In this document: positions 11 through 21,533 of the stretch, piece after piece
Position numbering within the stretch: the first letter of the stretch is position 1
How the letters are laid out: every line of letters begins with the position of its first letter
Assembly (NCBI GenBank): GCA_045837725.1
Contig: JBEWZL010000157.1
Location: forward strand, 62,001 to 84,697
Source of the DNA: Vermamoeba vermiformis
Taxonomy: Eukaryota
Direction of reading: 5' to 3'
DNA length: 22,697 nt
Program-made: the position numbers and the translations under genes
The notes under the pieces: model-generated
What the model was told of the DNA's origin: nothing
Database searches by the model: none
What the model saw: the letters and a program-made list of their open reading frames with translations, nothing else

Positions 11-1081
11 ATGAACGTGGTCACATCTCTGAAAGAAGCTTTGAGAGAAATTGAAGACAAGCGGAGGCAAAAAGAAGAATCGCCAGATAATACATTAGAA
101 AATATATCTGAATTATTGAAAGTAGTGACAGCTCGATTTGAAGACCTAAACGAATCTGACGCGAACCAAGGTCTTTGTGCCGAGTTATTAGCGGAGGATA
201 TTCCAGTGCGATTAATCCATCATGTAATATATTTGAATAATAACGTTACGAAAGACGTGAAGAATTTTATTCAGGCCCTCTTGAAGTACAAAATTAACGA
301 TCAACAACCGGCATTAGCTTATTTCTCTTCAAATATTGCTGTTATATTGGACAGAATATTAAATGGCCTCGAGAATGCATTGACAGAAAATGGTGGATGG
401 TGGGCTATGGAAATTTTGACAGCTTGTATGAAATACGGATGCTTGACGGTTCAGATGCTAAATCTAGCGACAATCCGCAGACTTGCACAATGGGCGACAG
501 TAGACGATTTTGACATATCAGGTGCGGGAGTGCATGCATTACGACAGTTACTGTCCTCCCAGCCAGATTTGGTCTTGGAATTTCTGACACCAAATTTTGA
601 AGCGTTTTTTGACGTCATAATCGACATGGTGGACGCTAATACCCGTAACACGGGCAGAAGCGTTATGGGATTACTACGAAATATGTTGTTCCAGCCCACA
701 TACAAGCAATTTATGTTAAAGTTTGTGGCAGATGAGCCTCAAAAATACGCTGCGTTTGTTATCGAGCAGCAGTTAACGCCTTGGACTTCCTATCAATTAG
801 ACGTATGGCACGTTTTCAAATTATTTGTGGCCTATCCGAACAAAGTGAGTAAATTTCAAAACAGCATCGACTAGTCTACTAATTTTCTTCAGACTCCCGC
901 TACGAAAAGGCTGTTAATCGAGAATAGAGAGGACCTATTACCAGTAATTAACCGATTGAGAGGGCTCATTTGGAATCCTGATGATGTTGAGGAAGTGGAT
1001 CACGTTCATTACTTACTCTCAAATATGACCGAAGACTCGCATCAATTTAGCAGCAAAGAAATGGGGGCTGCGCAATTCTAA
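11..1081 (+). CDS. Mo25/CAB39-like scaffold protein (divergent), 2 exons
   Basis: ORF 11-844 spliced over a GT..AG intron (845-892) reads ...DVWHVFKLFVAYPNK|TPATKRLLIENREDLL..., matching the Mo25 C-terminal signature (FHVFKxFVANPNK). DFDISGAG...ALRQLL resembles Mo25 FDIAxDAFxTFKxLL. Stop TAA at 1079-1081. Confidence 0.8.
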
Positions 1082-2054: not shown

Positions 2055-4514
2055 TCAAAGGCGGAAGAACTCGTCGTCGCAGATCTCTCTGAAAGTGGGG
2101 CGTGCATTTTTGTCCACGGTGAGCAGGCGCGAGATGAAATTTCTTGTTTTTTCGGGCAATGCAGTGAACTCCGGCGCAGTCTTCTTCCAGTCACCAGCCA
2201 CTATGGAGTTCATGATCTCTTCTTCTCCGAGTTCGATGTTGTACGGAAATATGCCGGTGAAGAAAGCGTAGCACAAGATGCCGTAGCCCCACACATCGAC
2301 TTCTACGCCGTAGTTCTGTGCACCTTCCAGCGTGAACAGTTCTGGAGGTAAATTGTACACGGGCAAATTCTCAGGCGTAGCCGTGACTGGATGCTCACGG
2401 AAGAAGTTAATGGTTGTGAGGCGAAGATCGACTATAGAATAACGTGTCATCAGTTAACATGCTACAGCTGTAGGAGGCACTTACAAGTTTCCGGATGGAT
2501 CACAAACATGTCGAGACAGTGTGTCACGTAGTCCTTGGAAAACATCATGGCGGCGCTGAGTACTTGTCGTACGATGTCCTTCAAGACTCGTTCTTTGTCA
2601 GGCCAAACTTGGCTCTGTTGGACAACGAAGGACGATAAGGGTACGTAGCCGAGTTTGGTGTAGTCGATAGCTGCCACGTAGACATAACGGCCGCTCTCGC
2701 ACCAGTCCATGTACTCACTGACGTACGGAAGGCCCTTCAGTTTCTGGTACACTCTGGCTTCGTGCAGATATGAGTCAGTTTTGGGAATGGTTTTGTCAAG
2801 GACAACGGGGATAACTTTTCCGCTGCTCGGATCTGTTCGTTTTGCGCTGAACATTTGGTACTCCTCGTACATGGCCTGCACGTACTGTCGGACACCTTCG
2901 TCCACGTTATCCAAGTTTTTCGTTTCATCTTGCGTATCGGAGAATTGGCTCAACCAAGTTTTGAGAGCATCATATTGAGGATCTGCGACGATAACCTGCG
3001 GAGGCACTTCCGGCTCCTTAGGCACCACTTCTGGCGTCTGAGGCACGGTCAATGGCACATCTACGGGCACGGGTTGCGGTGTCGGTATCTCGGGTGCTTT
3101 AGTCTCAACAGCGGCATCGTCTTTGAATAAGAAACTAATGTCAACGCCAGTGACGTCGAGTACGAACGCGTCGTGTTCGATTTGGACCATAATCTGATGG
3201 CAGCTTCAGATCAGTACACGGAGTATTGCGACTATTATGCTAAGGTGATACTTACTTGTTTCAACTCGGCAATAGGCAAGTTGGGGGTAATACCAAACAT
3301 GGCAAAATGGCTGCGGAACTGTCTCGCCATGTCACGCATGGAAGTGTTTGTTCGATTCGAGCTGATACCTTCGTACCTAAAGGCGTTGGCTACTGCCTCG
3401 TGCAAGCTGGCTAAAATTGAGTTCAAAAGCGATGCGTTGCGTCATGGTCAAAAATCCGTGGTAGAACGGACCAATTGCGTGGGCAGGGGGCAACAGGCCG
3501 AGGATCAGTTTCGAGGCCTCCATGTGCATGCCCAGGTTCAGTTGTATGGTCTTCAAATTGAGCTCTTCGAAGCTGCAGTGAATTCAGTTCAGAATTCTAG
3601 ATTCCAAAAATGGATGCGGAACTTACCGTTGGGAAGACTCTGCTGAGAATTGAAGCTTTTTAAGGTGTGCATTTCTCAAAGCAGCCTCTAAAATACAAAA
3701 AAATTAATAAGGGGATCGAAACGTTACTTTTTTTTTCAAGGTTCTTACCCGCTGGTGCGGAGTGTACGATACTCATTTCAAGTGTTGCATGACGAACGTT
3801 GCCATGGGGAGTAACAGTGACGGATATGTCCTGGAACAGCATGCCCGCCATCGTTGCATTGATGGCGACGAAGAATTGCTTGATCTTTTCGGCATCCTGA
3901 TCTGTAGCTCCATTAGTGAGCTGGAATTCCAGGCGATAAAATTTTGCGGAGGTGCTCATTGACGTATATGACAATTTGATGGCAGCTTTAATGTCTTCAG
4001 GTGCCAGATTGCCAATCGTAATTTTCGAATCTACAACCAAGGTGTTTGGATCTCGTCCATTGGCGGATTTGGCGGCGATTGCGTTTCCATCGTTGGTATT
4101 ATGTTGTATTTTAGCCTTTTCTGCTTCTAAGTCATTCTTCGCTTTGTTGATTAAGTACGAGATGCTGCGCATCAGGCTTCTCGACTGCAGCTTAGCTTTG
4201 ACTTCCTTCAATTTATCCGCAGAGTGATCGCTGGAGTGAGTATTGTCGCGAGTGCACCACCAATCGAAGAACTCGTCGAACGAAATTGAACCGTTGCCAT
4301 CTCGATCGAGCACCGCCAAGTACTTAGCGACTTCCTCGTCGGTCATGATCTTGCCCATTGAATATATGAGATCATGAAACTCCTTGGCATCGATCTCGCC
4401 GCTTCCATCCGTGTCGAAAAGGTTGAAAACTTGACGAACTCTTTGTTTTAAAACTTCTCTGCTCTTCGGATTGGCGTATAATAGCTTAGTATCGTCTTTA
4501 TGAACTCGCTTCAT
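2055..4514 (-). CDS. EF-hand pair + uncharacterised domain + Pro-rich linker + C-terminal pseudokinase, multi-exon
   Basis: Two canonical EF loops (DTDGSGEIDAKE, DRDGNGSISFDE). Phase-consistent GT..AG introns near 3748-3688, 3626-3573, 3471-3411, 3254-3194 and 2484-2431 link these to a kinase fold with PPE, DVWGYG and RLLTVDKNARPT motifs but no HRD or DFG. The middle introns are the least certain; one uses a GTCCGT donor. Confidence 0.65.
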
Positions 4515-4722
4515 TGTTGTATTCGTTTGAGATAAATTTAAAATTCAACTGCCGGCAAAACGGTTATTTTTAGTCTTCGAGTCTCGCTAAAATCTCGCGT
4601 GGGAATTGGCGAGGTTTGTTGCCTTGGTTGCTGGCTCAATTCAATCCGATTTTAAAATACAATAAAATAGGACTGACTTACACCATTTATCATTCTCCAA
4701 AGCTTCGGCATAAATTCAATTC

Positions 4723-6154
4723 ATGAATACGAATCTCGTGCCAGCTTCTGTGCGTATTTTCAATGCCATAAAAATGAGGACTTGATTCATTAATTTAATT
4801 AACATCAGAGGTTACCTCGAGAAGTACTAGAAGTAATTTTTGACCACATGTTTTCAACCTTTCCTACTTGAAGATCAGTTAATACGCGAACAAATAATTC
4901 AAAAATTCTTCAAAAAACCGCACATACCAGAACTAGGCATGGAATCGGTATTTGTTCGTCAAAAGCGGATTTACAAGTCCGCATCTTCTCTTTTGACAGT
5001 CTGTAGAGCTTTGTAAGTCCCAAAAAATTGAATAATTGCTTACTAACGCGATTATTTACGTCCAAATTAGCTATGCTGCAATGCGTGCCTCGAATGTCAT
5101 TTGGCAAAAAATCTTTCATCTGACTACACTTGGTGCCAGTTCCTGGTTAACAAAGACTCCCGCGATTATTCAAGAGAAATTTAACGCGAGTTATTATCAA
5201 GCGTGCCAATACTTAATGACATTCGTCGAAAGGCTCGAATCTTTGACGTTTGACCAGCTCCATCCAGATTTGACATTTGTTGGCGTTGGAACTTCCTTCA
5301 TTTTGTTCCAGCAAGATGAAGAGTACCTAAGATACGATCTATCGACTCACTCACTGGTTTCTTTGACTGAGATTAAGCCCGCAGGCGTCTGTTTTGTGCG
5401 CGGCAAGTACTTGATTGTGGAGGACAACAATTTCAACACGGGCCTCTCAATATTGATTTATGACTTGATTGAAGACGAATTACTCCAACACTACGAGAAT
5501 GTAACGAGCACTTTGCGAGAGACTGGCTTTATATCGCGCCATAGTTTTGCGCGTAAGTTTTTATCTCTGGCTGTTTAATCACTTTCCTAACGCCGTACAT
5601 CAGGATACGGAGATTGGTTGTCCTATCAATTCTTTGTGCGGTCTACACGTGAAGGAGAGCATTATAACATGTTGTTTGGCATATCGCAGCACGTGGTGAA
5701 AGAACAAAAGTTATTTGATTACCTCAGATTCAAGGACGATGACACTCATTATTTGAACATTGTGCGCTCGGCTAGTGGGTGTGGGAGAGATGTTCTCTTG
5801 CGCTCTGTCATCAATGCAAACAGGTACGTTGTATTTGGGCTAATGAATACACTGCTAAATATTCAATATAGGACTTTTGAAACAGTCGCTGACCAGTCCG
5901 AAGAACTTAATCCAATTACACGCGAGTCAATATCGCGATTACCAGTAAGGCGAGCGAAGTTGCTTGGAAATTTTGCTATCGCCCAAAGCGAGGACAAATT
6001 GATCGCGATAACAACGTCCTTGAAGAGAGCTGTCAACTACGTCGATTCTGGTGCTCTCGGCTTCGCGCTTGAAAAGTTCTGCATTCGTGGCAATGAGCTA
6101 TTTGTAGTTCACGAGGGGAATTGCTTTGCTGCATTGTTGTGGGACGAAGAATGA
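4723..6154 (+). CDS. F-box protein with a probably beta-rich C-terminal region
   Basis: MNTNLVPAS|RLPREVLEVIFDHM...ASSLLTVCRAF|YAAMRASNVIWQKIF gives an F-box motif. Introns at 4750-4808, 5013-5070, 5553-5603 and probably about 5824-5871. The model needs either a +1 frameshift at T4 (4851-4854) or an intron ending at 4878. Confidence 0.65.
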
Positions 6155-6296
6155 CCAATCATCAAATATTCTAACGTAAATAATGACGTGTACTTACATA
6201 GCTTCGTCGTTTAATGACTGACCGGCTGGAATTTTGATAAGAGGTTGGGAACACAATTTTTTTCTTTGTTCTTTATATAATTAAGAACGGAGCAAA

Positions 6297-9239
6297 ATGG
6301 ACGTTAATTACTTCAACATTTTGTCAAATGAGGTGACATCTAGCATCATTTCATTTCTGGATGCAACGTCGTTCTTTCAATTTTGTCGCTGCTCTCAGGC
6401 CTTGTGCGAATTTAATAATATTACAAATGAACACTGGAGAATATTTTATTCGATTCAATGGTGCGTTGATGATGGGGAGCTGGTAGTATACAGCGAAGAG
6501 TAAGTCGGATTTGAATTATAAAATTAATTAAAAATTCGAAAACAAATTCCTATTGCGGTGTTGTGCAATTCTAGAGCATTTCTAACATAGATACACATGT
6601 AGAGATTGGCAAACTGTATTTAAACAAAGATTTAATGCCGAAAAGTCGTTTACACAACGCATCGAGCAAAACTTGCCTGTTACTGGGCCGTATGGCAATT
6701 CTTCATATAAAACCACTCCAATATCGTCCTTGGATCCAATCGAAGAAGGCCTCGGAAAACTACTAACGCTTGATCCCACGCGGCTTTTAGCAGGGAGAAT
6801 TTCTCATCCTCTTGCGCTTTGTAAGAATATTCCATGATGATTCGCTTACTAATCGAACCTAGACATGGATTCTCAGACAAAAATCGACCTGGAAGTCGAT
6901 CCGTTAGAGGTCACAGTAACAGCGATCGCGAAAATTCTACGACTCGACCCGGAAAAGTGGATTCAAGACCCAGTTAATGCAGGGGAATTATTTGCTTGTT
7001 TGGATGTTTTGGATAACTACATTCGTGCGTATTATAACGCAAGTCCATGGATTAACATGCCAAATTAGGAAATGTCAAGAGCCGGCCGTGCCTGGGGCTA
7101 GTTTCAGTTCTCAGGGATTTCATTGACGCGAAATTTCAACCGAAATCCATCAGAGCTGCCGCGGTCATATTTACTAATATTCGTACGTAACAATGATCAT
7201 CATGTGATTTATCAATATTGTTCTAATGATTGGCTGTTTAGTGATTCTCAGCAACAATGAGGATGATCCGCCTGATTATCGTGCGATGGCCGATAATTTG
7301 CATCTAGTACGACGCACGGTTGAAGTATTCGAGAAAGTGACGTCAGATCCATGGTTGGATGTTTCGTTGCTCTCCACACTCCGACATTTGCTCAAAAAGA
7401 GCTGCAAAGATTCAGCGGAATTAGTTCGAAGACCAGCGTTCATTAAAAGACTGAAAGAAGTAATGCAGAACAAAAAACCAGAGTATATCACCTAAAACTG
7501 CGAGCGGGCTGTTGACAAACGGAGCAGCAGTTGTATCCAACATCGCTTCCATAGGTATGTATAATACGACTGTTCAGTACAGCTAAGTTGACTGAAAACT
7601 GTAGATCCGGATTACGCCGCTAGTCAAGGCCTTCTTGAATTGCTGATTGATGTCGCTTACCAAATTGAGGGCGTAGATAAATGGCTGCTGTTTGACGTAG
7701 CTCAAGGATTGAAACGATTCAGTAATTCAAGTAAGATACATTGCCCAAATTCACCGCATCACGTACTCACGACATTTAGAAAATCTTCGCCTAAAAATTG
7801 CGAGCAATACTTCGCTTCTCAATCACATTATGAGATTGCTTCATAGCGCTGCAAAGAGTGGTGGAGTGCCTTTGTCCGATTTAAGGATGGTTTTCTTGTT
7901 GTTCCGCGAATTGTGTAGAAAATGTAAGTTGATGAAGTTGATGAACATTATTAGTCCGCATATTAACTAGTTTAGCGTTATCGACGATGTTTGACGGCGG
8001 TTATTTGGAGGAGTTGTTACCGTACCTCAAAAAAGTTCAAACAGATACGTTATTCGCTGACCTGTGCGATATCATGGGCTATTTTATTCGACATGGGATT
8101 GAAAACTGTAAGAGCTGCTCTCGCTTCTTATATCAATCATAGTTATAATATTTATTGCGCTAGTACGGTTGGATGCCGTGCACAAAAAGCTGGAGCCACA
8201 TTTGCAGACCATCATCAATCACCGGCACTTCAAAGAATCGATTCCATTCTGGCAAAATTATTATTGTGGTATGGACTTTGCGGGGTGTTATTTCAGCGTT
8301 GCTTAATGTTGCTCAGGAATGCCAATGCCTCGCGAAATAACGAAGAGTCTCGTTGAAAGAATCATTCCTGAAGTGCCTCTCGAAACTGATCTCGATTACG
8401 CTCGGTCGTATGCTGAGCTGTTGGCAAACATTGCTCAATCGGATCGTACGTTTAAATGATTGTCTTATCTATTTCTGACGTTTGAATAGGGGCTGTATTA
8501 TTAGAAATGGATATTCAAGTCGTCTTTGAACATTTTGCTTTGAAGTTGATTCTGGATGAAGACCGTGAAAACGACACGAACAGTCGCGGACTAATTCCAT
8601 ATCCAATTTGCTTCTTGTCTGCCTCCGCCTCTTTGCGTAAGATTTGACATTGTTGACTAGCATTGACTAACTTGTTTATAGCACAAGCAGCACAACTAGC
8701 GATACACAACAGCGCTTTATTAGACAAAATGAACTCGTTGTACTGCGATGAAGAAGAGAACGAGACGATTTACATGGTCACGCACTTCTACAGTCACCTT
8801 GTTACACTTGAAGGTAATGAATGGCAAGCAATGTAAGCGATTAAAGGAGTGTATTAGGCTGGGACAACAGAAAGGGACTCGATATCTTGGCTCGTTTCGG
8901 AGCTACAATGCCACTTGACGCGGAAATGTACTTCATGTTCACATTTATCGAACCTTACTCGCACTTGTTCCTGCGTGACAATCCAGTGGAGATGGTGCTG
9001 TTTGGCAGTTGGATGGTGGCTCGAATGTCTCAGAGAAGTACGGATTACCTTCGATTCAATCATATTGCAATCGGCTAACGTTGTTTATTACAGAGGAAGG
9101 GCGATTGGGATTGAAGAAATTGAGCGCAGATGTAGTCGAGTGGTTGTCAGGTCACTCAGACATGCGAATCAGAAAGAATATGAACCATTACCATCAAAAC
9201 ATGGAGAACGCCAAGAATCTGTACGACATTGAAGTCTAA
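6297..9239 (+). CDS. F-box protein with long helical (ARM-like) region, many short exons
   Basis: N-terminal F-box FNILSNEVTSSIISFLDATSFFQFCRCSQAL..EHWRIFY. A chain of phase-consistent ~50-bp introns runs to TAA at 9237-9239. Leu-rich amphipathic helices throughout. One apparent +1 frameshift in the A6 run at 7472-7477. Confidence 0.7.
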
Positions 9240-9351: not shown

Positions 9352-10556
9352 TTATTCGAACAAGGCCTCAGGATTGTGCACGAACACAGGGGCATCTTCA
9401 CCCTTGTATTCTGAAGGTTGACGTGCGGACACATGGCCAATGATGTAGCTCTCTTCACCGTGGTCTTTCAGCACTTTGCGCACGTGTTCAAGCTTGTCAG
9501 CAGCAACGACAATAACGAGACCAATACCCATGTTCCAGGTCTTCAGTAAGTCTGCAAAATTTGATTACTTACTCGTACATGAAGTATTAGAACGCCTTAT
9601 CAGAACTTACCATCAGCCGAGAATTTGCCTAAACTAATCAACCATTTGTAGACCGGAGGCAAAGGCCAGCTGCGCAAGTCCAAATCAACTTGGACGTTGC
9701 TGGGCACGACACGCGGAATATTCTCGGGCAAGCCACCGCCAGTGATGTGAGCCAAGGCCTTAATAGATTGGTCTTGAATGAGGGGCAGAACTTGCTTGAC
9801 GTAGATCTTAGTCGGCTCTAACAACGCGTCACCAATGCGTTGATGTTTTGACGGGAATGGCGGAGGTTGGTGCAAATCAATCTTGTTCACTGAAATGATC
9901 TTGCGGACCAACGAGTAGCCATTCGAGTGAATGCCTGAGGAGCTCAAGCCAAGTACGACGTCGCCAGGGACGACCAAGTCCAGCTTCGGCAACATCTGCT
10001 CGCGTTCAACAGCTCCGACAGCAAATCCAGCCAAGTCACTAAGACACTATTAGTATGAATGGAACCTGATTGTCAATATATAACGTACTATTCGCCAGGT
10101 TGGTACATGCCGGGCATTTCAGCAGTTTCACCACCGATCAGCGAGCAGCCACTTTGCAAGCAGCCATCAGCAATGCCCTTGACAACTTGATAACCTTCGT
10201 CAATGTTAAGAGAGGCACAGGCAAAGTAGTCCAAGAAGAACAACGGCTCGGCTCCTTGACACAGCACGTCGTTGACGGACATGGCCACAAGATCAATGCC
10301 AACTGTGTGATGCACGCCCATTTGTTGCGCCAACTTCAGCTTGGTGCCAACACCGTCAGTCTTGCTAACGAGGATGGGATCCTTGAAGTGAGTCTTGGAC
10401 ACGTCAAACAAGCAGCCAAAACCACCCAAAGCAGCGTCAGTGCCAACGCGTCGTGTGCTCTTGGCAAGAGGCTTGATGCGTTCAACGAGCTCGTCTTGAG
10501 CGGCAATATCGACACCAGCGTCCTTGTAGCTCAGTGACACCTTGCTAGTGCTAGTC
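9352..10556 (-). other. purM: AIR synthetase (PurM) domain of the trifunctional gene
   Basis: [38 protein letters not shown] and [22 protein letters not shown]. Confidence 0.95.
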
Positions 10557-12902
10557 CTTTCAAAGTCGTTAATATACTTGTCATCGAGCTGGTTAATTCC
10601 GACTTACTTCCAGTCCGGATCCAAACGACCTTGCTGTGCCATTCGAACTGCAGCTATCAGAGCAGGACCTTCAAGCGCTTGAACTTTAGCCTTCAAAGAT
10701 TCGGGAGTTTCGGCTGCTTCTACTTTGCAACGGTGTTGCACGATGACTTCTCCAGCATCAACTTCGGGCTCAATCAAATGGACGGAGCAGCCAGTCTCAG
10801 TCTTGCCACTCTCGAGCACTGCTTTGTGAACAGCAAGGTCCATCAAGCCCTTGAAGTCAGGGAGCAAGGACGGGTGGACATTGACCATAGGAATGCGCTA
10901 ATGAGAAAGTGAGTTATTGGTACCTTTCAGCGCTGAAATTCATTACTTACGAGCTTTTTGAAGTGTTCCACGAAGGGCTTGGACAAAATTCTCATCCAAC
11001 CAATCAGTAAAACCATGTCAATGCCTTCAAGGTACTCGATCAATTTAGCGTCGTATTTCTCTCTCGTCAAGCCATTGACTGGAATGAATTTGCACGGCAA
11101 GTTGTGCTCTTTGGCACGCGTCAAAATGTAAGCGTCAGATTTGTTGCTCAATACGATGCGGATTTCAGCGTTCAGTTCATTGGCGTTGATAGCGTCGATG
11201 ATAGCTTGCATGTCAGTGCCGCGAGTGGAGCCCAAGACGGCAAGACGCAGAGGCTTGAAACTCTTTTGAGCAATGTCTCTGCGGTACTGAGCACCTTCGA
11301 ATTTGATGTTTTCAAGAACTGCAGTAGATAGTTAATACAAAGTGTCGAGCTCTCGATATGATCGTACCTTCGTAGGCTCTGCCAGCAGCGCGATTAAGCG
11401 ACGAGTTGACAGCTGTCACAGCGAGCACGCGACCACCAGAAGTCACCAACTGACCGTCCTTAACTTGAGTACCTGCGTGGAAGATAACAACGTCCGACGA
11501 TTGAGCGTTGATGCCAGTGATGGGCTTGTTCGAGGCATAGCTGCCAGGATAGCCGCCCGAAGCTAAGACGACAGTAGCGGCCGACAGATTGCTGTGCCAG
11601 TGAACTTTAAGGCTGTCGAGAGTGCCATTGACGCAGGCTGAAGCAATTTCAAAGAGATCAGTCTTCAGCAAGGGCAAGACGACTTGAGTTTCAGGGTCGC
11701 CAAATCTGCAGTTGAATTCGAGCACGATGGGGCCTTTCTCAGTCATCATCAGTCCAGCAAACAAAACACCAACGAATGGAGTGCCTTCAGCGGCCATTCC
11801 TTTGATGGCAGGTTCGATGACTTTGGCTGTCAATTCGGCACGCAGCGCTTCGTAGTCTGGAACCGGAGCAAAAGCACCCATGCCTCCCGTGTTGGGTCCT
11901 TTGTCACCGTCATGGACACGCTTGTGATCCTGAGCGGTGGGCATTGAAATCACGTGCTTGCCGTCTGAAAAGGCGAGAAGGGAAATTTCTTCGCCGGACA
12001 AGACTTCTTCGAGCACCACTGCAGACAAGTCAGCTACGATTTCGCGAATAATAAATCATTGTTGTGAGGGGTAAATACCTGTGTCTCCAGCAGTTCCGAC
12101 GATTTTGTTTTGCATAATATCTTTGACTGCATCTTTGGCTGAAAAATTTTTGGTCAATACTTGACATCAAATCCAATTTTGATTTGTCTTACCTTCCTGT
12201 TTGTTTGCAGGAACGATTACACCTTTGCCGGCAGCCAAACCTGAGGCTTTGACAACAACGTTGTGGTCGAGCGAGTCGATGTACTGATAAATTTCTTCCA
12301 GCGATTGTGTATTCGTAAACGTTTTATACTGCGCGGTAGGAATGCCGTGGCGAATCATGAAGTCCTTGGCAAATGATTTTGAGGCTTCAATTTGAGCTGC
12401 TTTAGCTGTGGGACCGAAGCACGGGATCTTGGCGGTAGCCAGCTTGTCTAAATAAATTTTAAAATATTTTCGAACGGAATTTGCTGTATTTTAAAAAAGT
12501 TACCTGCTAAACCATTTGACAAAGGCACTTCAGGGCCGACAATCACGAGATCTACCTTTTGATCTGCGCAAAATGAAACAATATCGTCTTCTTTCGTAGC
12601 ATTATAATTTTCAATGGCAACCTTTTCATTTTTCATCGAGGCAGTTCCTACAAAGGGGAAGATAGCATTTAGATTCGTTCGTCATGATCTTTCGTGAAAT
12701 ATTAATATCTATTCAAATACCTCCATTTCCAGGGCAAACAACGATCCTATATTTTGATAATACATACAGGTCAAAAAACAATGTAAATTAAGGATCTGAT
12801 CTCGATCGCGCTCACCTTTTCGAGATGCGGGCTTTGCGCAAGCTTCCAAACGATAGCGTGTTCACGACCGCCTGATCCAACAACAACTACAGTTTTAGAC
12901 AT
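9352..12902 (-). CDS. GART: Trifunctional purine biosynthesis protein, domain order GARS(PurD)-GART(PurN)-AIRS(PurM), 11 exons
   Basis: Starts [21 protein letters not shown] (PurD). Contains DHKR, NTGGMGA and [12 protein letters not shown]; then [15 protein letters not shown] and [17 protein letters not shown] (PurN); then [45 protein letters not shown] and TWNMGIG (PurM). Stop TAA at 9354-9352. Nine of ten introns join in phase; the exon 1/2 junction is off by +1. Confidence 0.93.
10608..11253 (-). other. purN: GAR transformylase (PurN) domain of the trifunctional gene
   Basis: LIGWMRILS, catalytic N-x-H in NVHPSLLP, catalytic D in VDAG, and [14 protein letters not shown]. Confidence 0.95.
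11269..12902 (-). other. purD: GAR synthetase (PurD) domain of the trifunctional gene
   Basis: [55 protein letters not shown] and the terminal YRRDIA motif. Confidence 0.95.
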
Positions 12903-13088
12903 GCTTGGTAGCGTAAACAAATCGATATAAATTATAATAATAAACTTGGTGACCGTTGCACAAACAAGCGGTCAGAAAGTCGCAAAAAACTTTTCGACAA
13001 CCATTTACAACTTGTTTTTTAATCATTATTTATATATATAGCAATATATTGTACATACGTGATCGCTTTATAGCGAGCTTATTGTACA
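12903..13088. promoter_or_regulatory. Putative bidirectional promoter between the GARS-GART-AIRS gene and PurL
   Basis: 186-bp AT-rich interval between two divergent ATGs (12902 minus, 13089 plus). Contains a TATATATATA tract and an imperfect dyad at 12944-12980. Promoter function is inferred from geometry only. Confidence 0.7.
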
Positions 13089-16000
13089 ATGGCACTTTTA
13101 AAATATTTCAAAACTCCGGGCCTTTCTCCAGCCGAGGTTTCAGCCGTAAAAGACAAGGTTGCAACGTACTTTGGCAGCCAAATCACGTTAGAGCTCTTTG
13201 AGACCGAGAATTGCATTTATATTGACACTGATGGCCAGAAACTAGACGGATCAGATATTGAAAAATTATCCTGGCTCTTCCGAGAGACTTTTGAGCCTCA
13301 TAACTTTGGAACCTTATCCTTTATGGTACGTTCTTATTTTTAAAAATGAATTTCAGGTTTTGTGCACCAATTTCTCGACATACAAGGAACGATCTGATCT
13401 GCTTGTTTAGGACACTAAAGTAATGTCAGCTATCGACCCAACAAAAAGATGTGTTTTCGTGGAACTCGGTCCTCGATTGAATTTCTCTACAGCTTGGTCA
13501 ACAAACGCGATCAACATTTTCAGATCGTGTGGCTTGAGCAAAGTACAACGCATTGAACAGTCGCGCCGTTTGCTGTTACGACTTGCTTGCCACGATACAG
13601 TTGATGACGCTGCCTTCCATAAAGCTGAGAGCCAATTTATTTCCTCCCTTTACGATCGCATGACAGAAATGATCTACCGAGAGCCCCTGACAAGCTTCAA
13701 GTTAAATATGACTCCTGAGGTATTAATTAACGCTACAAGTAGCAATATAATAACATTTCTGACGGAATATTTCAGAACTGGTTTAAAGTGCCTGTCATCG
13801 AGCAAGGTCGTGCAGCGCTGGAGAAGATCAACAAAGAAATGGGCCTTGCATTCGACGATTGGGATTTGGACTATTACACTCAGTTGTTCAAAGAAAAGAT
13901 TCAACGCGATCCGACTTCCGTCGAGTGCTTCGATTTGAGTCAATCGAACAGCGAGCACTCTCGTCACTGGTTCTTCAAGGGAAAGTAAGTCGTTGACTCA
14001 AGTGCGCGTCAATCATATCTAACGGTGCTGATAGGATGGTCATTGACGGCCAAGAAATGCCGTTCTCTTTGTTTGACCTCGTTATGGACACGTTGAAGCA
14101 ATCACCTTCGACCAACTCGCTCATCGCTTATCGTGACAATGCTCGTGCCATCAAGGGCAGCACGATCAAACAGTTGCGCACGACAGATCCCACCACTGCA
14201 AGTCAAGTCGAGCCCGTTGAAAAAGAGTTCGCGCTGACGTTCACCGCCGAGACACATAACTTCCCCACGGGCATCGCACCCTTCCCCGGTGCTGAGACAG
14301 GCACTGGCGGTCGATTGCGTGACACTCACTGCGTAGGTCGTGGCGCGCTCATTATTGCCGGCACAGCTGGTTATTCCGTGGGCAATTTGAACATTCCCGA
14401 TTATCCTTTGCCTTGGGAGGACAACTCATGGAGCTATCCTTCAAATATGGCCAAGTACGTCTTTTTAATCCTGGGCGTCGTTACTTAATGTGCAACTTTC
14501 AGACCTTTGCAAATCGAAATCGAAGCTAGTAACGGAGCCAGTGATTACGGCAACAAGTTTGGTGAGCCAGTCATTCTCGGCTTTACGCGTTCATTGGGCA
14601 TCAAGACTCCCAACGGTGAACGACGCGAATACATCAAGCCCATCATGTTCACGGGTGGCTTCGGCCAAATGAGCATGGAGCATTTGAAGAAGGGTGATCC
14701 CGAGGTTGGTATGGTCATCGTTAAGCTCGGTGGTCCTGCCTATCGTATTGGAATTGGTGGTGGTGCTGCTAGCTCCATGGCGCAAGGTCAAAACGACGAG
14801 AACTTGGACTTCAATGCCGTGCAACGAGGCGATGCTGAAATGGTACGAATAATGAGCGCTTTAGAGTTGTATTAACGTTGTATGTTCAGGAATCCAAGAT
14901 GAACCGAGTCATTCGTGCTTGCGTGGAATTGGGACCTCGCAATCCAATCATCAGCATTCACGATCAAGGTGCTGGTGGCAATGGTAACGTGCTGAAAGAG
15001 ATTGTTGAGCCTGCTGGTGCTAAGATTGAGGTACGAATGAAACTCAAGTGCCCCATAACCGGATTTATTAACCGCGTGTTAGATCCGCAAAATTTTGGTT
15101 GGCGACGAAACTTTGTCAGTTCTCGAGATCTGGGGTGCTGAATACCAAGAAGCTGATGCCCTGTTGATCAAGCCTGAAGACATGACATTCTTTTCTTCTC
15201 TCTGCGAACGTGAAGGCTGCCCTGTAGCTTTCGTCGGTACTGTCACCGGTGATGGCCGTGTGGTAGTGCACGACGAGAAAGACAACTCCACGCCTTTTGA
15301 TCTCGAACTCGATCACGTGCTCGGTAAAATGCCGCGCAAGACGTTCAACAGCAACAGAGTGAAGATGGCTGGACAGCCGTTGTCCCTCAATGTCGGCGCG
15401 AAAGATCACCATGCAGCCACTAAGGCCATTCTCGACCGCGTTCTGCGCTTGCTGAGCGTTGGTTCGAAGAGATTTTTGGTTCACAAAGTCGACCGCTCAG
15501 TTAGTGGGCTCATTGCTCAACAACAGTGCGTTGGTCCTCTGCATATTCCTCTCGCGAACAACGCCGTCATCTCTCAAAGGTACGAGCCAATTGAATGTAA
15601 CGAAAGCGCTAGGGTACTAATACCGATTGCAGCTATTATGGCTTGACTGGTGGTGCTACATCAGTGGGTGAACAGCCGTTCAAGACTTTACTCGACCCCG
15701 CAGCGATGGCTCGTATGACTGTTGGAGAAGCGTTGACTAATTTGATCTTCACGAAAGTCTCTTCGGTAAGTTTCGTTTGCGCTTGAAAAAGATGACATTA
15801 AGTAATACCTGGATCGCAGCTCCAAGATGTCAAGTGCTCAGCCAACTGGATGTGGCCCGCGAAGTTACCCGGAGAAGGTGCTGCCATCTACGACGCCGTT
15901 CAAGGCTTGCACGATGTTCTCGTTGCACTCGGCGTTGCTATTGACGGAGGCAAGGACAGTTTGAGCATGGCCGCGAAGGTCACTCATCCCGACAACACCA

Positions 16001-17694
16001 CTGAAATGGTTAAAGCTCCTGGCACCCTCGTCTTGTCCACGAACTGCAGTGTACCGGATATCACGAAGAAGATCACCCCTGACATTAAAGCGGCTGGTGA
16101 AAGCAAGCTGATCTTCGTTAACTTGAGCGACAAACAACGGTAAGTTCTTCGGTGCATTTGATTGCAGATACCAATACATTACTTTAGACTTGGCTGCTCC
16201 GCTCTTACTCAAGTCTACAATCAACTCGGCGATGCTTGCCCTGATTTTGAGCACGTAGATTTATTCAAATCAACTTGGGAAGTCGTTCAGCACTTGATCG
16301 GCGAAGAGAAGCTGTTGGCAGGTCATGATCGCAGCGATGGTGGCTTGATCGTCACGCTGCTCGAAATGGCATTTGCTGGCGACTGCGGCCTGAACCTCTC
16401 ACTTGATGTCACCGGCGACTTCGACAAATCAATCGTCCCCTTCTTATTCAACGAAGAACTTGGTCTCGTGTTTGAAGTTCACAACTCCGTGCTGGAATCA
16501 GTGGTCAATGAATTTAAGAGCAAGTCAGTGTTCGTTATAGTCTTGGGCTCTACAACCGTTGAAAAGACAATCACAATCAAGGCTGGCGCATCTACGATTT
16601 TGCACGACAGTATGGTTGATTTGCGCGATGTCTGGGAGGCAACCAGCTTTGAACTGGAAATGCGCCAAAAGAATCCCAAGTGTATCGTGCAAGAGAAGAC
16701 CGGTCTAAAATCACGCAAGGCACCTCCAGTCAAGTTGAGCTTCAAACCAGTCGCATCGATCGAATCGCAATTGAAGGCTCCTACTAACCGTCCTCGTATC
16801 GCTGTGCTTCGCGAAGAAGGTAGCAACGGTGACCGCGAAATGGTTGCTGCTTGGTACACCGCTGGCTTCGATGTTTGGGACGTGAAGATGTCGGACTTTG
16901 TCACCTCTGACTTCAGCTTGAAATCGTTCCGCGGTGTTGCTTTCGTTGGCGGCTTTTCGTACGCAGATGTGCTGGGCTCGGCTAAGGGTTGGGCTGGCGT
17001 CACACGCTTCAACGAGAAGATTTTCAAGGAGTTCAACGATTTCTACGCTCGGTAATGATTAATTTGGTGTTTTATTTCTATGCGTGTCTAACCTCGTCAA
17101 TTGCAGCAAAAATACGTTCAGTTTGGGAGTTTGCAATGGCTGTCAATTGATGGCGTTACTAGGCTGGGTACCTTACGGCAAGGAAACACCCGATGAGAAG
17201 CAGCCTCGCTTCATTCGCAACCTTTCGGAGCACTTCGAGTCGCGTTACAGCACTGTGAAGATTTTGCCTAGTCCAGCAATTATGTTGAAAGGAATGGAAG
17301 GATCGACGCTTGGTATTTGGGTAGCGCATGGAGAAGGTACAAGTACAACTTTTACTAATTCAACTGCTAATGTATTCCTTCCAAAGGTCGCGCTTATTTC
17401 CCGGATCACGCAATTTTCGATTCGGTTATTCAAAAGAATTTGGCTCCGATTCGATACGTTGATGATGATAACAATCATACTGAGCAATATCCATTTAATC
17501 CTAATGGTTCACCGCTTGGCATTGCATCCTTGTGCTCCGAAGATGGCCGCCACCTAGCAATCATGCCGCATCCAGAGCGATGCTTCCTGAAATGGCAATT
17601 GCCATGGATGCCTGCAGACTGGAGGTCTTTGGAGGCTTCACCTTGGCTGAAAATATTCCAGAACGCTCGTATTTGGTGTGATGCAACTCTCTAA
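13089..17694 (+). CDS. purL: Phosphoribosylformylglycinamidine synthase (large PurL/PFAS/Ade6), 12 exons
   Basis: GPRLNFSTAWSTN, QSNSEHSRHWFF, AETHNFPT, GASDYGNKFGEP, HDQGAGG, KVDRSV, DGGKDSLSM, HDRSDGG, REEGSNGDREM, GGFSYADVLGS, and glutaminase GVCNGCQ and MPHPER. All 11 introns join in phase. Confidence 0.97.
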
Positions 17695-18015: not shown

Positions 18016-19506
18016 ATGAAAACGACTATATTATTAGTATTGATTTTCTCAATTTCACTTGGCGCTGCGTCATATTCGGGCGACATTTGTGGAGGAGAGC
18101 TGTTACAATCGGATCTGGCCTTGGAGAAGCGCATGACCAGCCAAATTCGTTGCCAAATGCACGATTGTGATGACCCCGCGATTAGGTACTGCTGTTAATT
18201 AATATTAATAGCTTTTTAACCGTTTGTTTAATTTAGGAATCTGTATCTGCTCAATGGCGAATCTCCCCTCACTAACATTCGCCTAAATATTGTATATTTC
18301 GGTGATTTATCAGGTCAAAATCGAACTACTTATGACGCTCAGGTAAATTTACTGGTCTTATTTTGTTCGGATCTAATCCGTTTCAGCTCGAATTTTTTCA
18401 ACAAGCTTACCTCCAACAAATGAATATTACGTGGAATATTACCACTACAGTAGTAACTGACAAGTACCAAACCGTCGTCGGATCAGTCTCGTCGCAATAC
18501 AGAGTAGAGCACGAGCAGATGGCACAAGAATTCTATGTGCCTGGTTATATGACGTTACTATGGACCACGTTCTACCCTAATCTAGACTCAATTAGCGGAT
18601 ACGCGTTCACTCCTCAAACGTCGAACCTAACGGATCCCACTCAATGGTACGCGATCTTGAATTTAGGCGCAATCGCGCCAAAAAGCACTGTTATGATTCA
18701 TGAAGTCGGTCATATGTTAGGTAAGTTCTATTCACTGATATTACTGATCGCATTTTTCGCCGACAACAGAAAATTTGTTGTGCACAAAAGCGGAAAATTG
18801 GTTCAATTAATAATAATTTTTTAAACCTTTTCGATTTTAGGGCTGCTACATACTTTTGCCTCTTCTTATTACGGCTCTAGCTGTACTTATTGCAACGATA
18901 ACGTCAACTCCGAAAACCACGACATTGTCGGAGATTTATGCAGCGATACAAGACCGGTGTCGCAGACCAGTTATTGCGACCATTTGATCTCTGGTAATCA
19001 TAATCAAATTTAATATGACATCACGATTGGAGGTACATATATATTTAATGCTCATTGCTACAGGCTATGATTGCTCCTCTACACCCTACGGCAATATCTC
19101 ACTGTTGCCGCAAGACAATTTCATGTCATACACTAACTGTCCAACACGATTCACTGTGCAACAAACAGCTCGGGCACGGTGTTATTTGGACAGGCTCATT
19201 AATTTTGTGGTTAATAACAATGAACCTGTATCGTCTGAACCTCTTGCTGTACCAGATGCTCCAATTGCAAACACACCATTTGAGAACAACATACCACCAG
19301 CATCTAGCACCCCCTCAACTTTTGGACCAATCAGCGACAGCCAATCTGAACCGAGTACCAGCAATGTGCCTTCAGTGTCAAGTCCAGTACAATCTCCATC
19401 ATCGAATGTTGTTTCGACTGGTTCTCGTGCAGTGAAAGCAGCACTGTTAGGCCTGGTGTATGTAATAAATGCTCGTTTAATAAATAATTATCAACAAATT
19501 GATTAG
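18016..19506 (+). CDS. Secreted M43 (pappalysin-like) zinc metalloprotease with Ser/Pro-rich tail; 3' end uncertain
   Basis: Signal peptide MKTTILLVLIFSISLGAA. Splicing out 18721-18840 gives HEVGHMLGLLHTF (HExxHxxGxxH). GDLCSDTRP, Met-turn NFMSY and FTVQQTARARCYLD follow, then an S/P/T-rich stretch and a short hydrophobic segment. Confidence 0.88.
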
Positions 19507-19816: not shown

Positions 19817-21533
19817 TTATTCGCTACTGTCATCGGATGAAAGCTCCATTTCATTGCCGGACAACTGGTTGATCTTCTCCATGCACTCGGCAGTGTGCAA
19901 TTCTGCTATGTTTGAGTCCTCCTGACAGACAAGACATGCCTTATAAGTTTCACATATCTCACAGGTCCAAAATTTGTGGTTGACTCGATATATTTTCTGA
20001 CATGTCGTACATGTACGCTGCTGGATCCAGTGCTGTTCCTTCTGTTTTTTCTTCTCAGCTGCCTCAGCTTTCTCTTTTTGAGCATCCTGTTTGTCCTTCT
20101 TGACTTGCTCTCTCTTCTGCTTGGCAGCATTCTTCTCTTCTTGCAATTTCTTGGCCTCAGCCTCGACTTTTTCAGCGTGTTCCAGCATTTCAGAACCAAG
20201 CATCAGTTTGTTCTTGGCAGCAGAGCGTCCTTGCCTGGGCTTTGTCTTGTTTGTGTTGGAGGTCACAACCTCCTTAACTGTGTCCACCATTGACAAGAAC
20301 TGTTTCTCTTCGGGCGGAGTAGCCTTCGACTTTTGTTGCCACAGGTACGCGTTGACAAATTTGTCGCGTATCACCTTTTCATCAAAGGGCCAGATGCCTG
20401 TGTGCTTGAATCCAGCTTGAATGACCTCTTTTGTGAATATTTGGGACTTGTTCTCTTCAAGTATCTCCTCAAGCATACCATCCATTGTCCCCAGAGATTA
20501 GTCGCTTCATTCTTTCCCACTCGACACTTTTGCGCATGTTGAATTTGAATGAGGCAAATATGACGTCATCAAGAGGTTGAAGCAAATGGGTAGTATGAGC
20601 AGGTAGGTACAGTGGCTGAATATTGTTATCCACCATTAGTTTGCAACTGGAAAGCTCAAGGTGGGTACTGTGTCGATCAAGAAGTAAGAGCGCTGGTCGA
20701 TTGGCCTTGAAGGCGTTAAGTTGCTCCACAAGTGCTGCTATAATTTGCTTCCATAATTCATTTGTTATAAATCCATTAGCAGTAGTTGCATAATAAGTGG
20801 GGCTAGAGCTCCTGGTAAGGCGAAGCTGTGGTATGACAGGAATCGTCGTGCCCTTGCCCGTGTCACCTTTTGACATCTCTTTGTAGATCAGCACGGTCAT
20901 CCATACTCTGCCAGACGCAGCAACAAAAGGCAATATAGTTCGTAGGTGACCTTTGGGAGTATTCATCCTCCCTTGCTTTTTTGACTTGGCACTCATTAGT
21001 AGCTTGCGAACTTCTGAATCATTGAACTTACATGGAGATTCGTCTGCATTAATGATGAAGTCCTCAGAATAATCGTTTTGAGCCAATAACTTCTTGTATA
21101 TAGCAATGAATTGATTTAATACATCAGGAGAGACTGAATTAACACGACCCATGTCAAGACCTTTTCCAAACGTGTGTGATATGAGATCGCCGCGTCGTTT
21201 TACAAATCCAGAAAACCAATGATCGCCTCGCCAATTGTCATCTAATTTCCAAATTGTCCGCACAAATGTTAAGAACATGGTACGTGAGAAAGGCATTCCA
21301 ACTGCCGAGAAGGCCAAAATTATCGCACAAAGTCGTTTTTCTTCCTCATCTGAAAACTTGCGATTTCCATGTTGCTTATTTTTTTGTTTTTTTGAACGCT
21401 GATAAGCCTTACGTAATGTTTCAAATTTGATATTATTATTTGCACTAATTTAGCAAATAATTTTGCGAGCGGAGGATTCTCCCGCCGAAATCCGCTGGTT
21501 GATCAGTGTGAATAATTCGCCGTACTTGCTCAT
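19817..21533 (-). pseudogene. Disrupted DD35D transposase (CENP-B-like HTH + DDE_1 + coiled coil + Cys-rich finger)
   Basis: ATG at 21533. WFSGFVKRR HTH, INADES, LLLDRHSTH and LQPLD (35 residues between the last two Asp), GFKHTGIWPFD, C-terminal CTTC..WTCEIC..CLVC. In-frame TAA at 21452-21450 and a +1 frameshift near 20490. Confidence 0.85.

Follow-up and report, generated by a model that had tools for sequence, protein, structure and literature searches.

A purine synthesis fusion gene and the gene for its missing step lie head-to-head in the genome of Vermamoeba vermiformis

De novo purine synthesis proceeds through consecutive enzymatic steps, of which GARS performs step 2, GART step 3, FGAM synthase (PurL) step 4 and AIRS step 5. 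Here we describe, in Vermamoeba vermiformis, two genes that together encode these four steps and that start 186 bp apart on opposite strands: a fusion gene for GARS, GART and AIRS in one polypeptide, and a large PurL gene, which supplies step 4, the sole step absent from the fusion. They lie in a stretch of 22,697 nucleotides (assembly GCA_045837725.1, contig JBEWZL010000157.1, positions 62,001 to 84,697 of the forward strand), which we call the window and in whose numbering all positions are given; its G+C content is 43.8% and it contains no N. The two are nuclear housekeeping genes that form a genuine divergent pair within a eukaryotic genome that is compact and rich in introns, and the geometry of the pair suggests, with a probability that we place slightly above even, that they are functionally a shared promoter pair. 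An earlier reading of the letters alone (the sequence-only reading) had proposed the coordinates of the two genes, their intron counts (10 and 11), the domain order and the head-to-head spacing; all of these proved correct when compared with spliced gene models, and Pfam and PDB matches bear out its statement that PurL provides exactly the step that the fusion lacks.

The fusion gene, on the minus strand, runs from an ATG at 12902 to a TAA at 9354-9352 and, with splice sites read from the sequence and checked by script, consists of 11 exons and 10 introns that encode 989 residues without an internal stop codon. From 12971 down to 9352 the Pfam matches on this strand follow the order GARS_N, GARS_A, GARS_C, Formyl_trans_N, AIRS and AIRS_C, and exon 7 contains the transition from GARS_C to GART. 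Human domains are the best PDB matches of both the GARS and the GART parts, the top match of the former being the human GARS domain 2qk4 (E 3.8e-69). In alignment to human GART, the Asn-x-His and Asp catalytic positions are kept (VDAGEVI against human VDAGQII; human MLNIHPSLLP), and the AIRS part matches PurM structures in the PDB down to E 1.1e-57. In one spliced frame the polypeptide contains the GARS domains, a GART with its catalytic positions and, after GART, the N- and C-terminal domains of AIRS, the continuity of GART and AIRS requiring the removal of intron 8.

The PurL gene, on the plus strand, runs from an ATG at 13089 to a TAA at 17692-17694 and has 12 exons, separated by 11 GT..AG introns of 47-85 nt, that encode 1335 residues. 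Between 13411 and 17694 the Pfam order is FGAR-AT_N, FGAR-AT_linker, AIRS_C, FGAR-AT_PurM_N-like, AIRS_C and GATase_5, and the glutaminase motif GVCNGCQ is present, so that the N-terminal domain, the linker, the duplicated PurM-like core and a C-terminal GATase_5 with its catalytic Cys are all found in one polypeptide. Over its whole length the model has 58-59% identity with complete PurL proteins, and FGAM synthase structures in the PDB are matched down to E 8e-65. Across both genes (9352-17694), purine-family Pfam matches were obtained for 19 of the 21 stop-to-stop open reading frame (ORF) pieces; the remaining two (13074-13343 and 13997-14488) correspond to PurL exons 1 and 4 and align to PurL once spliced. 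An AATAAA follows the stop codon of each gene at a short distance (Table 1).

Because the start codons are only 186 bp apart, both 5' untranslated regions and both core promoters are expected to lie inside the spacer, whose candidate elements are given in Table 1. Each ATG is preceded by an AT-rich, TATA-like block, and the stretches 12925-12944 and 13016-13035 of these blocks are the arms of an inverted repeat (I1) that is 80% complementary, which in low-complexity sequence is weak evidence. The perfect palindrome at mid-spacer could be the site of a shared factor, while the two copies of TATTGTACA have no other exact counterpart in the window. Such an arrangement is consistent with two core promoters that face outward on either side of a shared site, with the motifs as candidates only. 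Rfam gave no matches across the window, so that no known RNA gene lies in the spacer or in the introns. Most likely, the two genes would share one nucleosome-free regulatory region in this short AT-rich spacer and would be transcribed in coordination; the shared region is proposed on account of the geometry of the pair, from which coordinated expression would likely follow. Such coordination may match the amounts of two enzymes that exchange intermediates, formylglycinamide ribonucleotide (FGAR) passing from GART to FGAM synthase and formylglycinamidine ribonucleotide (FGAM) from FGAM synthase to AIRS.

Table 1. Positions in the window of the two purine synthesis genes, of elements in and around them, and of flanking features with Pfam matches.
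Feature	Position	Strand	Basis or remark
GARS-GART-AIRS fusion gene (purD-purN-purM order)	9352..12902	-	Pfam, spliced model, PDB matches
Fusion gene, exons 1-6	12902-12817, 12746-12721, 12647-12504, 12447-12193, 12138-12079, 12018-11368	-	
Fusion gene, exons 7-11	11318-10951, 10897-10608, 10550-10089, 10038-9611, 9551-9352	-	
GARS part (step 2)	11275..12902 (lower boundary approximate)	-	exons 1-6 and first codons of exon 7; GARS_N, GARS_A, GARS_C
GART part (step 3), Formyl_trans_N	10646..11247	-	Pfam; intron 7 lies inside GART
AIRS part (step 5)	9355..10550	-	exons 9-11; AIRS and AIRS_C Pfam matches
Fusion gene, intron 1	12747..12816 (12746-12816 with either boundary)	-	sequence reading, intron table
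Fusion gene, intron 8	10551..10607	-	57 nt, GTAAGT..AG, exactly at the GART/AIRS junction
AATAAA	9332..9337	-	15 nt past fusion-gene stop codon
Large PurL / FGAM synthase gene (step 4)	13089..17694	+	Pfam, spliced model, PDB, tree
PurL, exons 1-6	13089-13325, 13411-13719, 13776-13984, 14035-14454, 14503-14842, 14890-15030	+	
PurL, exons 7-12	15083-15579, 15633-15765, 15820-16139, 16188-17051, 17107-17336, 17387-17694	+	
AATAAA	17721..17726	+	27 nt past PurL stop codon
Spacer between the two ATGs	12903..13088	.	186 bp, 31% G+C
AT-rich TATA-like block	12925..12944	.	23-42 bp upstream of fusion-gene ATG; inverted repeat I1
Perfect palindrome TGACCG-N13-CGGTCA	12950..12974	.	mid-spacer, inverted repeat I4; candidate shared factor site
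AT-rich TATA-like block	13016..13046	.	43-73 bp upstream of PurL ATG; inverted repeats I1, I2, I5
TATTGTACA, two exact copies	13047-13055, 13080-13088	+	second copy adjoins PurL ATG
Mo25	11-874	+	Pfam
Protein kinase and EF-hands	2055-2453 (kinase), 3660-4544 (EF-hands)	-	Pfam; probably one gene, 2055-4514
DDE_1 (pogo-like) transposase ORF, 326 residues	20469-21449	-	Pfam

The introns of the pair are short and uniform: 20 of the 21 are GT..AG introns of 47-85 nt, and, when pooled, those of the fusion gene have a G+C content of 33% and those of PurL one of 38%, compared with about 50% in the exons. The exception is intron 1 of the fusion gene. Homology sets the reading frame at both of its flanks (HLEK on one side and IVVCPGNGG on the other), and this frame is kept only if 70 nt are removed, either as GG..AG (12816-12747) or as GT..GG (12815-12746). 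The canonical combination, GT(12815)..AG(12747), takes out 69 nt and shifts the frame, and in the sequence reading no GT donor and AG acceptor were found that would preserve the frame together with the conserved motif. The simplest explanations of the anomaly are a one-base assembly error (one extra base) or non-canonical splicing. A more damaging account starts from the frameshift that canonical splicing of intron 1 would produce after codon 29, and sees in the fusion gene a pseudogene in decay, or in the locus a faulty assembly, so that the two genes would not work as a unit. We consider this very improbable, given that no stop interrupts the other 960 codons, which align collinearly with homologues, that the catalytic motifs are kept and the other 20 introns canonical, and that a single-base assembly error or GT..GG / GG..AG splicing is simpler. 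Furthermore, the end of exon 7 recurs in P0282, a protein of 105 residues that is the top phmmer match of the exon 7 peptide: it is 94% identical to exon 7 (10951-11211, minus strand), departs from it precisely at the donor site of that exon, and looks like an ORF called on genomic DNA from a closely related organism that has its intron at the same position.

A second oddity of splicing concerns intron 8. An in-frame TAA directly follows the end of the preceding exon, so that retention of the intron would yield a GARS-GART protein without AIRS; in addition, another acceptor that keeps the frame is located 6 nt further downstream (exon start at 10544). As a separate observation, 15 of the 51 database relatives scanned for domains (see below) likewise consist of GARS, or part of it, and GART, with nothing recognised afterwards.

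To place the fusion gene among its relatives, the peptide encoded by exon 7, which reaches from the end of GARS_C through the linker to the middle of GART, was used as the query of a phmmer search. This returned 3254 matches at E <=0.001, of which the best 150 were listed; 51 of these 150, mostly those of about 350 residues or longer together with three short top matches, were scanned with Pfam, and 99 were left out. GART followed by AIRS, as in the fusion gene, was the arrangement of 21 of the 51. Besides the 15 GARS-GART proteins mentioned above, many of which are fragment-like, two had GARS-GART directly followed by PurL, one had the metazoan order GARS-AIRS-GART, and the other 12 included GART with FolD, PurC/E, PurH, PurF, PX or 2OG domains, GART alone, and fragments. 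The order GARS-GART-AIRS is therefore common in sequence databases. It differs from that of the metazoan trifunctional protein, TrifGART, a single polypeptide that also carries these three catalytic domains but with AIRS in the middle, whereas here GART stands between GARS and AIRS. One published account assigns a GARS-AIRS form to Amoebozoa and Fungi and a trifunctional form to Metazoa and "some protists" (PMC8449271). Aligned end to end, the fusion model has 57% identity with P0034 of Balamuthia mandrillaris (1036 residues, called 'Phosphoribosylformylglycinamidine cyclo-ligase' in its source record) and with P0108 (1028 residues). For neither of the two genes was a near-identical full protein present among the large-database matches listed, the best reaching 62% in one search and 54% in another.

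Quick trees of GARS and of PurL, built from 37 hand-chosen rows each, with support from the Shimodaira-Hasegawa-like approximate likelihood ratio test (SH-aLRT) only, place both genes among eukaryotic relatives. In the GARS tree, the GARS part of the window groups with P0034, P0108 and P0291 (SH-aLRT 98), three proteins from other organisms that share the order GARS-GART-AIRS; the closeness to Balamuthia is a weak pointer to an amoebozoan-like origin. In the PurL tree, the PurL of the window groups with P0236 (SH-aLRT 98) and belongs to a set of 15 rows (SH-aLRT 95) that includes named animals and stramenopiles and no named bacteria; a Balamuthia PurL was not among the matches of the PurL-exon searches (the 120 best listed in one, 41 in the other). 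Both genes look, from their sequences, like resident eukaryotic genes, and the view that they are neither contamination nor the product of a recent operon transfer, already put forward in the sequence-only reading, is upheld by their intact-looking, intron-rich structure and by this placement.

The idea that the pair is the relic of a bacterial pur operon, its genes being neighbours because they were transferred together and having gained their introns later, has some points in its favour. Bacteria do group these genes, as at locus L009 of a bacterial metagenome-assembled genome (2813-12466, plus strand), where purE, purF, purM, purN, a polysaccharide deacetylase gene, purD and purL follow one another on one strand with a gap of 8 nt between purD and purL; in addition, the PurL of the window is 57-59% identical to PurL proteins of about 1300 residues, a length typical of bacteria, as against 51-54% for named eukaryotic ones. 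However, the 21 spliceosomal introns, the divergent rather than co-directional orientation, the grouping of the GARS part with P0034, P0108 and P0291, and the position of PurL within the animal and stramenopile set all speak against such an origin, which we judge to be the least probable of the explanations considered here and extremely improbable in itself. The likeness to bacterial pur operons consists in the genetic linkage of steps 2-5; the operons differ in being made of separate, intron-free genes on one strand, whereas here the two genes diverge, are rich in introns and include a triple fusion. It can be added that GARS-AIRS proteins of about 765 residues also occur in bacteria (P0076 from Anaerolineaceae; P0099 and similar).

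The two database proteins in which PurL directly follows GARS-GART are of particular relevance to the pair. P0295 and P0412 each carry GARS, GART and PurL in one continuous polypeptide and share 47% identity over 945 residues. In both, a linker of 20-45 residues comes after GART, and next a PurL part that aligns with the PurL of the window from residue 3 of the latter (FGAR-AT_N, linker and first AIRS_C). P0295 is incomplete at both ends and P0412 at its C-terminus, and no AIRS is visible in either. Their GARS parts group with two GARS-GART-AIRS proteins (SH-aLRT 96); their PurL parts group together (SH-aLRT 98), on long branches and with an unsure wider placement. As in the pair described here, FGAM synthase is coupled with GARS-GART in these proteins, with the difference that the coupling is a co-directional fusion there and a divergent pair here. 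The sequences of these Rosetta-stone cases indicate at least one other joining of FGAM synthase to GARS-GART, separate from the locus described here.

When bacterial and archaeal genome contigs were scanned with P0295, 11 loci were found, all of them bacterial, consisting of ordinary pur operons or lone purD genes. The junction region of P0295 had no usable protein match in the Atlas; for P0412 the Atlas gave leads, all below 0.9, to GARS-GART clusters in Spirochaetota and in a candidate phylum and to a Bacillota cluster of GARS with FGAR-AT_linker.

A stronger interpretation than a shared promoter can be built on these fusions. The pair could be a selected 'purinosome-core cassette', in which FGAM synthase and the fusion protein would be kept under one purine-responsive bidirectional promoter, acting through the palindrome, so as to equalise the amounts of the enzymes. 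On such a reading, the same selective pull would have given the GARS-GART-PurL fusions in other lineages, fusion and divergent pairing being two outcomes of it, and P0295 and P0412 could even continue into AIRS as enzymes for steps 2-3-4-5. We regard this possibility as unlikely.

The simpler idea of a functionally shared promoter has to be weighed, above all, against chance neighbourhood in a gene-dense genome, according to which each gene would have its own minimal promoter, purine regulation would act in trans, and the linkage would be neither conserved nor selected. Several observations weigh against the shared promoter, and some of them favour chance directly. The window contains an unrelated divergent pair, formed by the EF-hand/kinase gene (ATG at 4514, minus strand) and a gene of unknown family (ATG at 4723, plus strand), with a gap of 208 bp, so that spacing of this kind is typical for the window; about 115 bp separate the end of the preceding gene from the stop codon of the fusion gene, the gene after PurL begins about 320 bp downstream, and this tight spacing makes a short divergent spacer ordinary for this genome. 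The caution of the sequence-only reading that short spacing alone is not evidence was thus well founded. Just two genes of the pathway are linked, and the pair came from an open-ended scan for anything notable, in which one same-pathway pair may arise by chance. The spacer motifs were also picked out post hoc: the palindrome TGACCG-N13-CGGTCA, the sole match in the window, has at least one match in 4 of 100 shuffles, and TATTGTACA with at most one mismatch has 10 matches in the window against 5.5 expected, a number reached in 5 of 100 shuffles. If the sequence is correct and intron 1 is spliced canonically, the fusion gene is frameshifted after its codon 29. Finally, the PurL parts of P0295 and P0412 fall apart from the PurL of the window in the tree, which points to recurrent coupling and not to an inherited linkage.

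On the other side, with 6-9 purine genes among 8,000-20,000 genes, chance predicts just 0.0004-0.0022 head-to-head purine pairs per genome. The pair is, moreover, not an arbitrary one, the fusion being joined with exactly its missing enzyme, and the same coupling recurs elsewhere in the form of gene fusions and of a bacterial operon. Chance adjacency is, in our view, a substantial possibility, to which we nevertheless give appreciably less than even weight. The literature searched, which did not extend to a survey of domain orders in protists, contained no description of a GARS-GART-AIRS/PurL pairing or of a GARS-GART-PurL fusion; the sequence-only reading had likewise known of none, and the lack of any published linkage of this type in that literature counts in favour of chance.

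The closest known parallel to the proposed shared promoter pair is the vertebrate pair GPAT (PPAT)/AIRC (PAICS), which is reportedly transcribed divergently from a bidirectional promoter in chicken and in human (Brayton et al. 1994; Gavalas & Zalkin 1995). In both cases two de novo purine genes of a eukaryote lie head-to-head around a short upstream region, and the starts of the genes described here, taken at their ATGs, are less than 1 kb apart, as in the geometry of the GPAT/AIRC kind. The genes themselves are not the same: the vertebrate pair joins step 1 with steps 6-7, the present one steps 2, 3 and 5 with step 4, and the use of the vertebrate pair as an analogue with different enzymes, made in the sequence-only reading, is a fair one. 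Furthermore, promoter sharing is reported to have been shown by experiment for the vertebrate pair, and its conservation between chicken and human is known, whereas sharing is inferred here. The term cluster, used in the sequence-only reading, is an overstatement: an operon-like metabolic cluster would comprise at least three contiguous non-homologous genes of a pathway, and here there are two, which run apart on opposite strands and therefore do not form a polycistronic operon either.

A further comparison concerns proteins rather than genes. A review describes PPAT, FGAMS and TrifGART as central in the purinosome of human cells and able to form tripartite clusters (PMC10912719). Two of these, FGAMS and TrifGART, are the same two proteins as those encoded by the pair; the human core is a protein assembly, while the present association is one of genes. 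The human TrifGART and FGAMS genes are not known to be neighbours.

The rest of the window has no evident connection with purine synthesis. In the 52 flanking ORF pieces scanned, Pfam recognised no domain of the purine pathway, and only four pieces have any match (Mo25, Pkinase, EF-hand and DDE_1), which answers for the window, with none found, the proposal to locate the other pur genes of this genome. In the gene at 2055-4514 (minus strand) the EF-hands are near the N-terminus and the protein-kinase domain lies downstream; the usual layout of calcium-dependent protein kinases is the reverse of this order. The gene at 4723-9239 (plus strand) is a multi-exon gene of about 4.5 kb with no Pfam match in any of its ORF pieces. 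Downstream of PurL, the gene at 18016-19506 (plus strand) has a signal-peptide-like start, MKTTILLVLIFSISLGAAS, a zinc-metalloprotease-like HEVGH motif and a Ser/Pro-rich end, again with no Pfam match. At 19817-21449 (minus strand), the ORF that follows the DDE_1 transposase has a lysine/glutamate-rich stretch and a Cys-rich tail, and the whole is probably a single transposon-derived gene.

Were the adjacency of the two purine genes due to chance, it would be a mere annotation detail of a compact genome. If, on the other hand, the linkage is conserved and the spacer acts bidirectionally, the pair would add a second, independent eukaryotic case of purine genes arranged around a bidirectional promoter, and one that involves two of the proteins described as central to the human purinosome. 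A single element of 186 bp would then offer a genetic handle on the matched expression of FGAM synthase and of the fusion protein, for studies of flux or channelling and, taken together with the GARS-GART-PurL fusions, the pair would suggest that the coupling of steps 2-5 has been repeatedly favoured.

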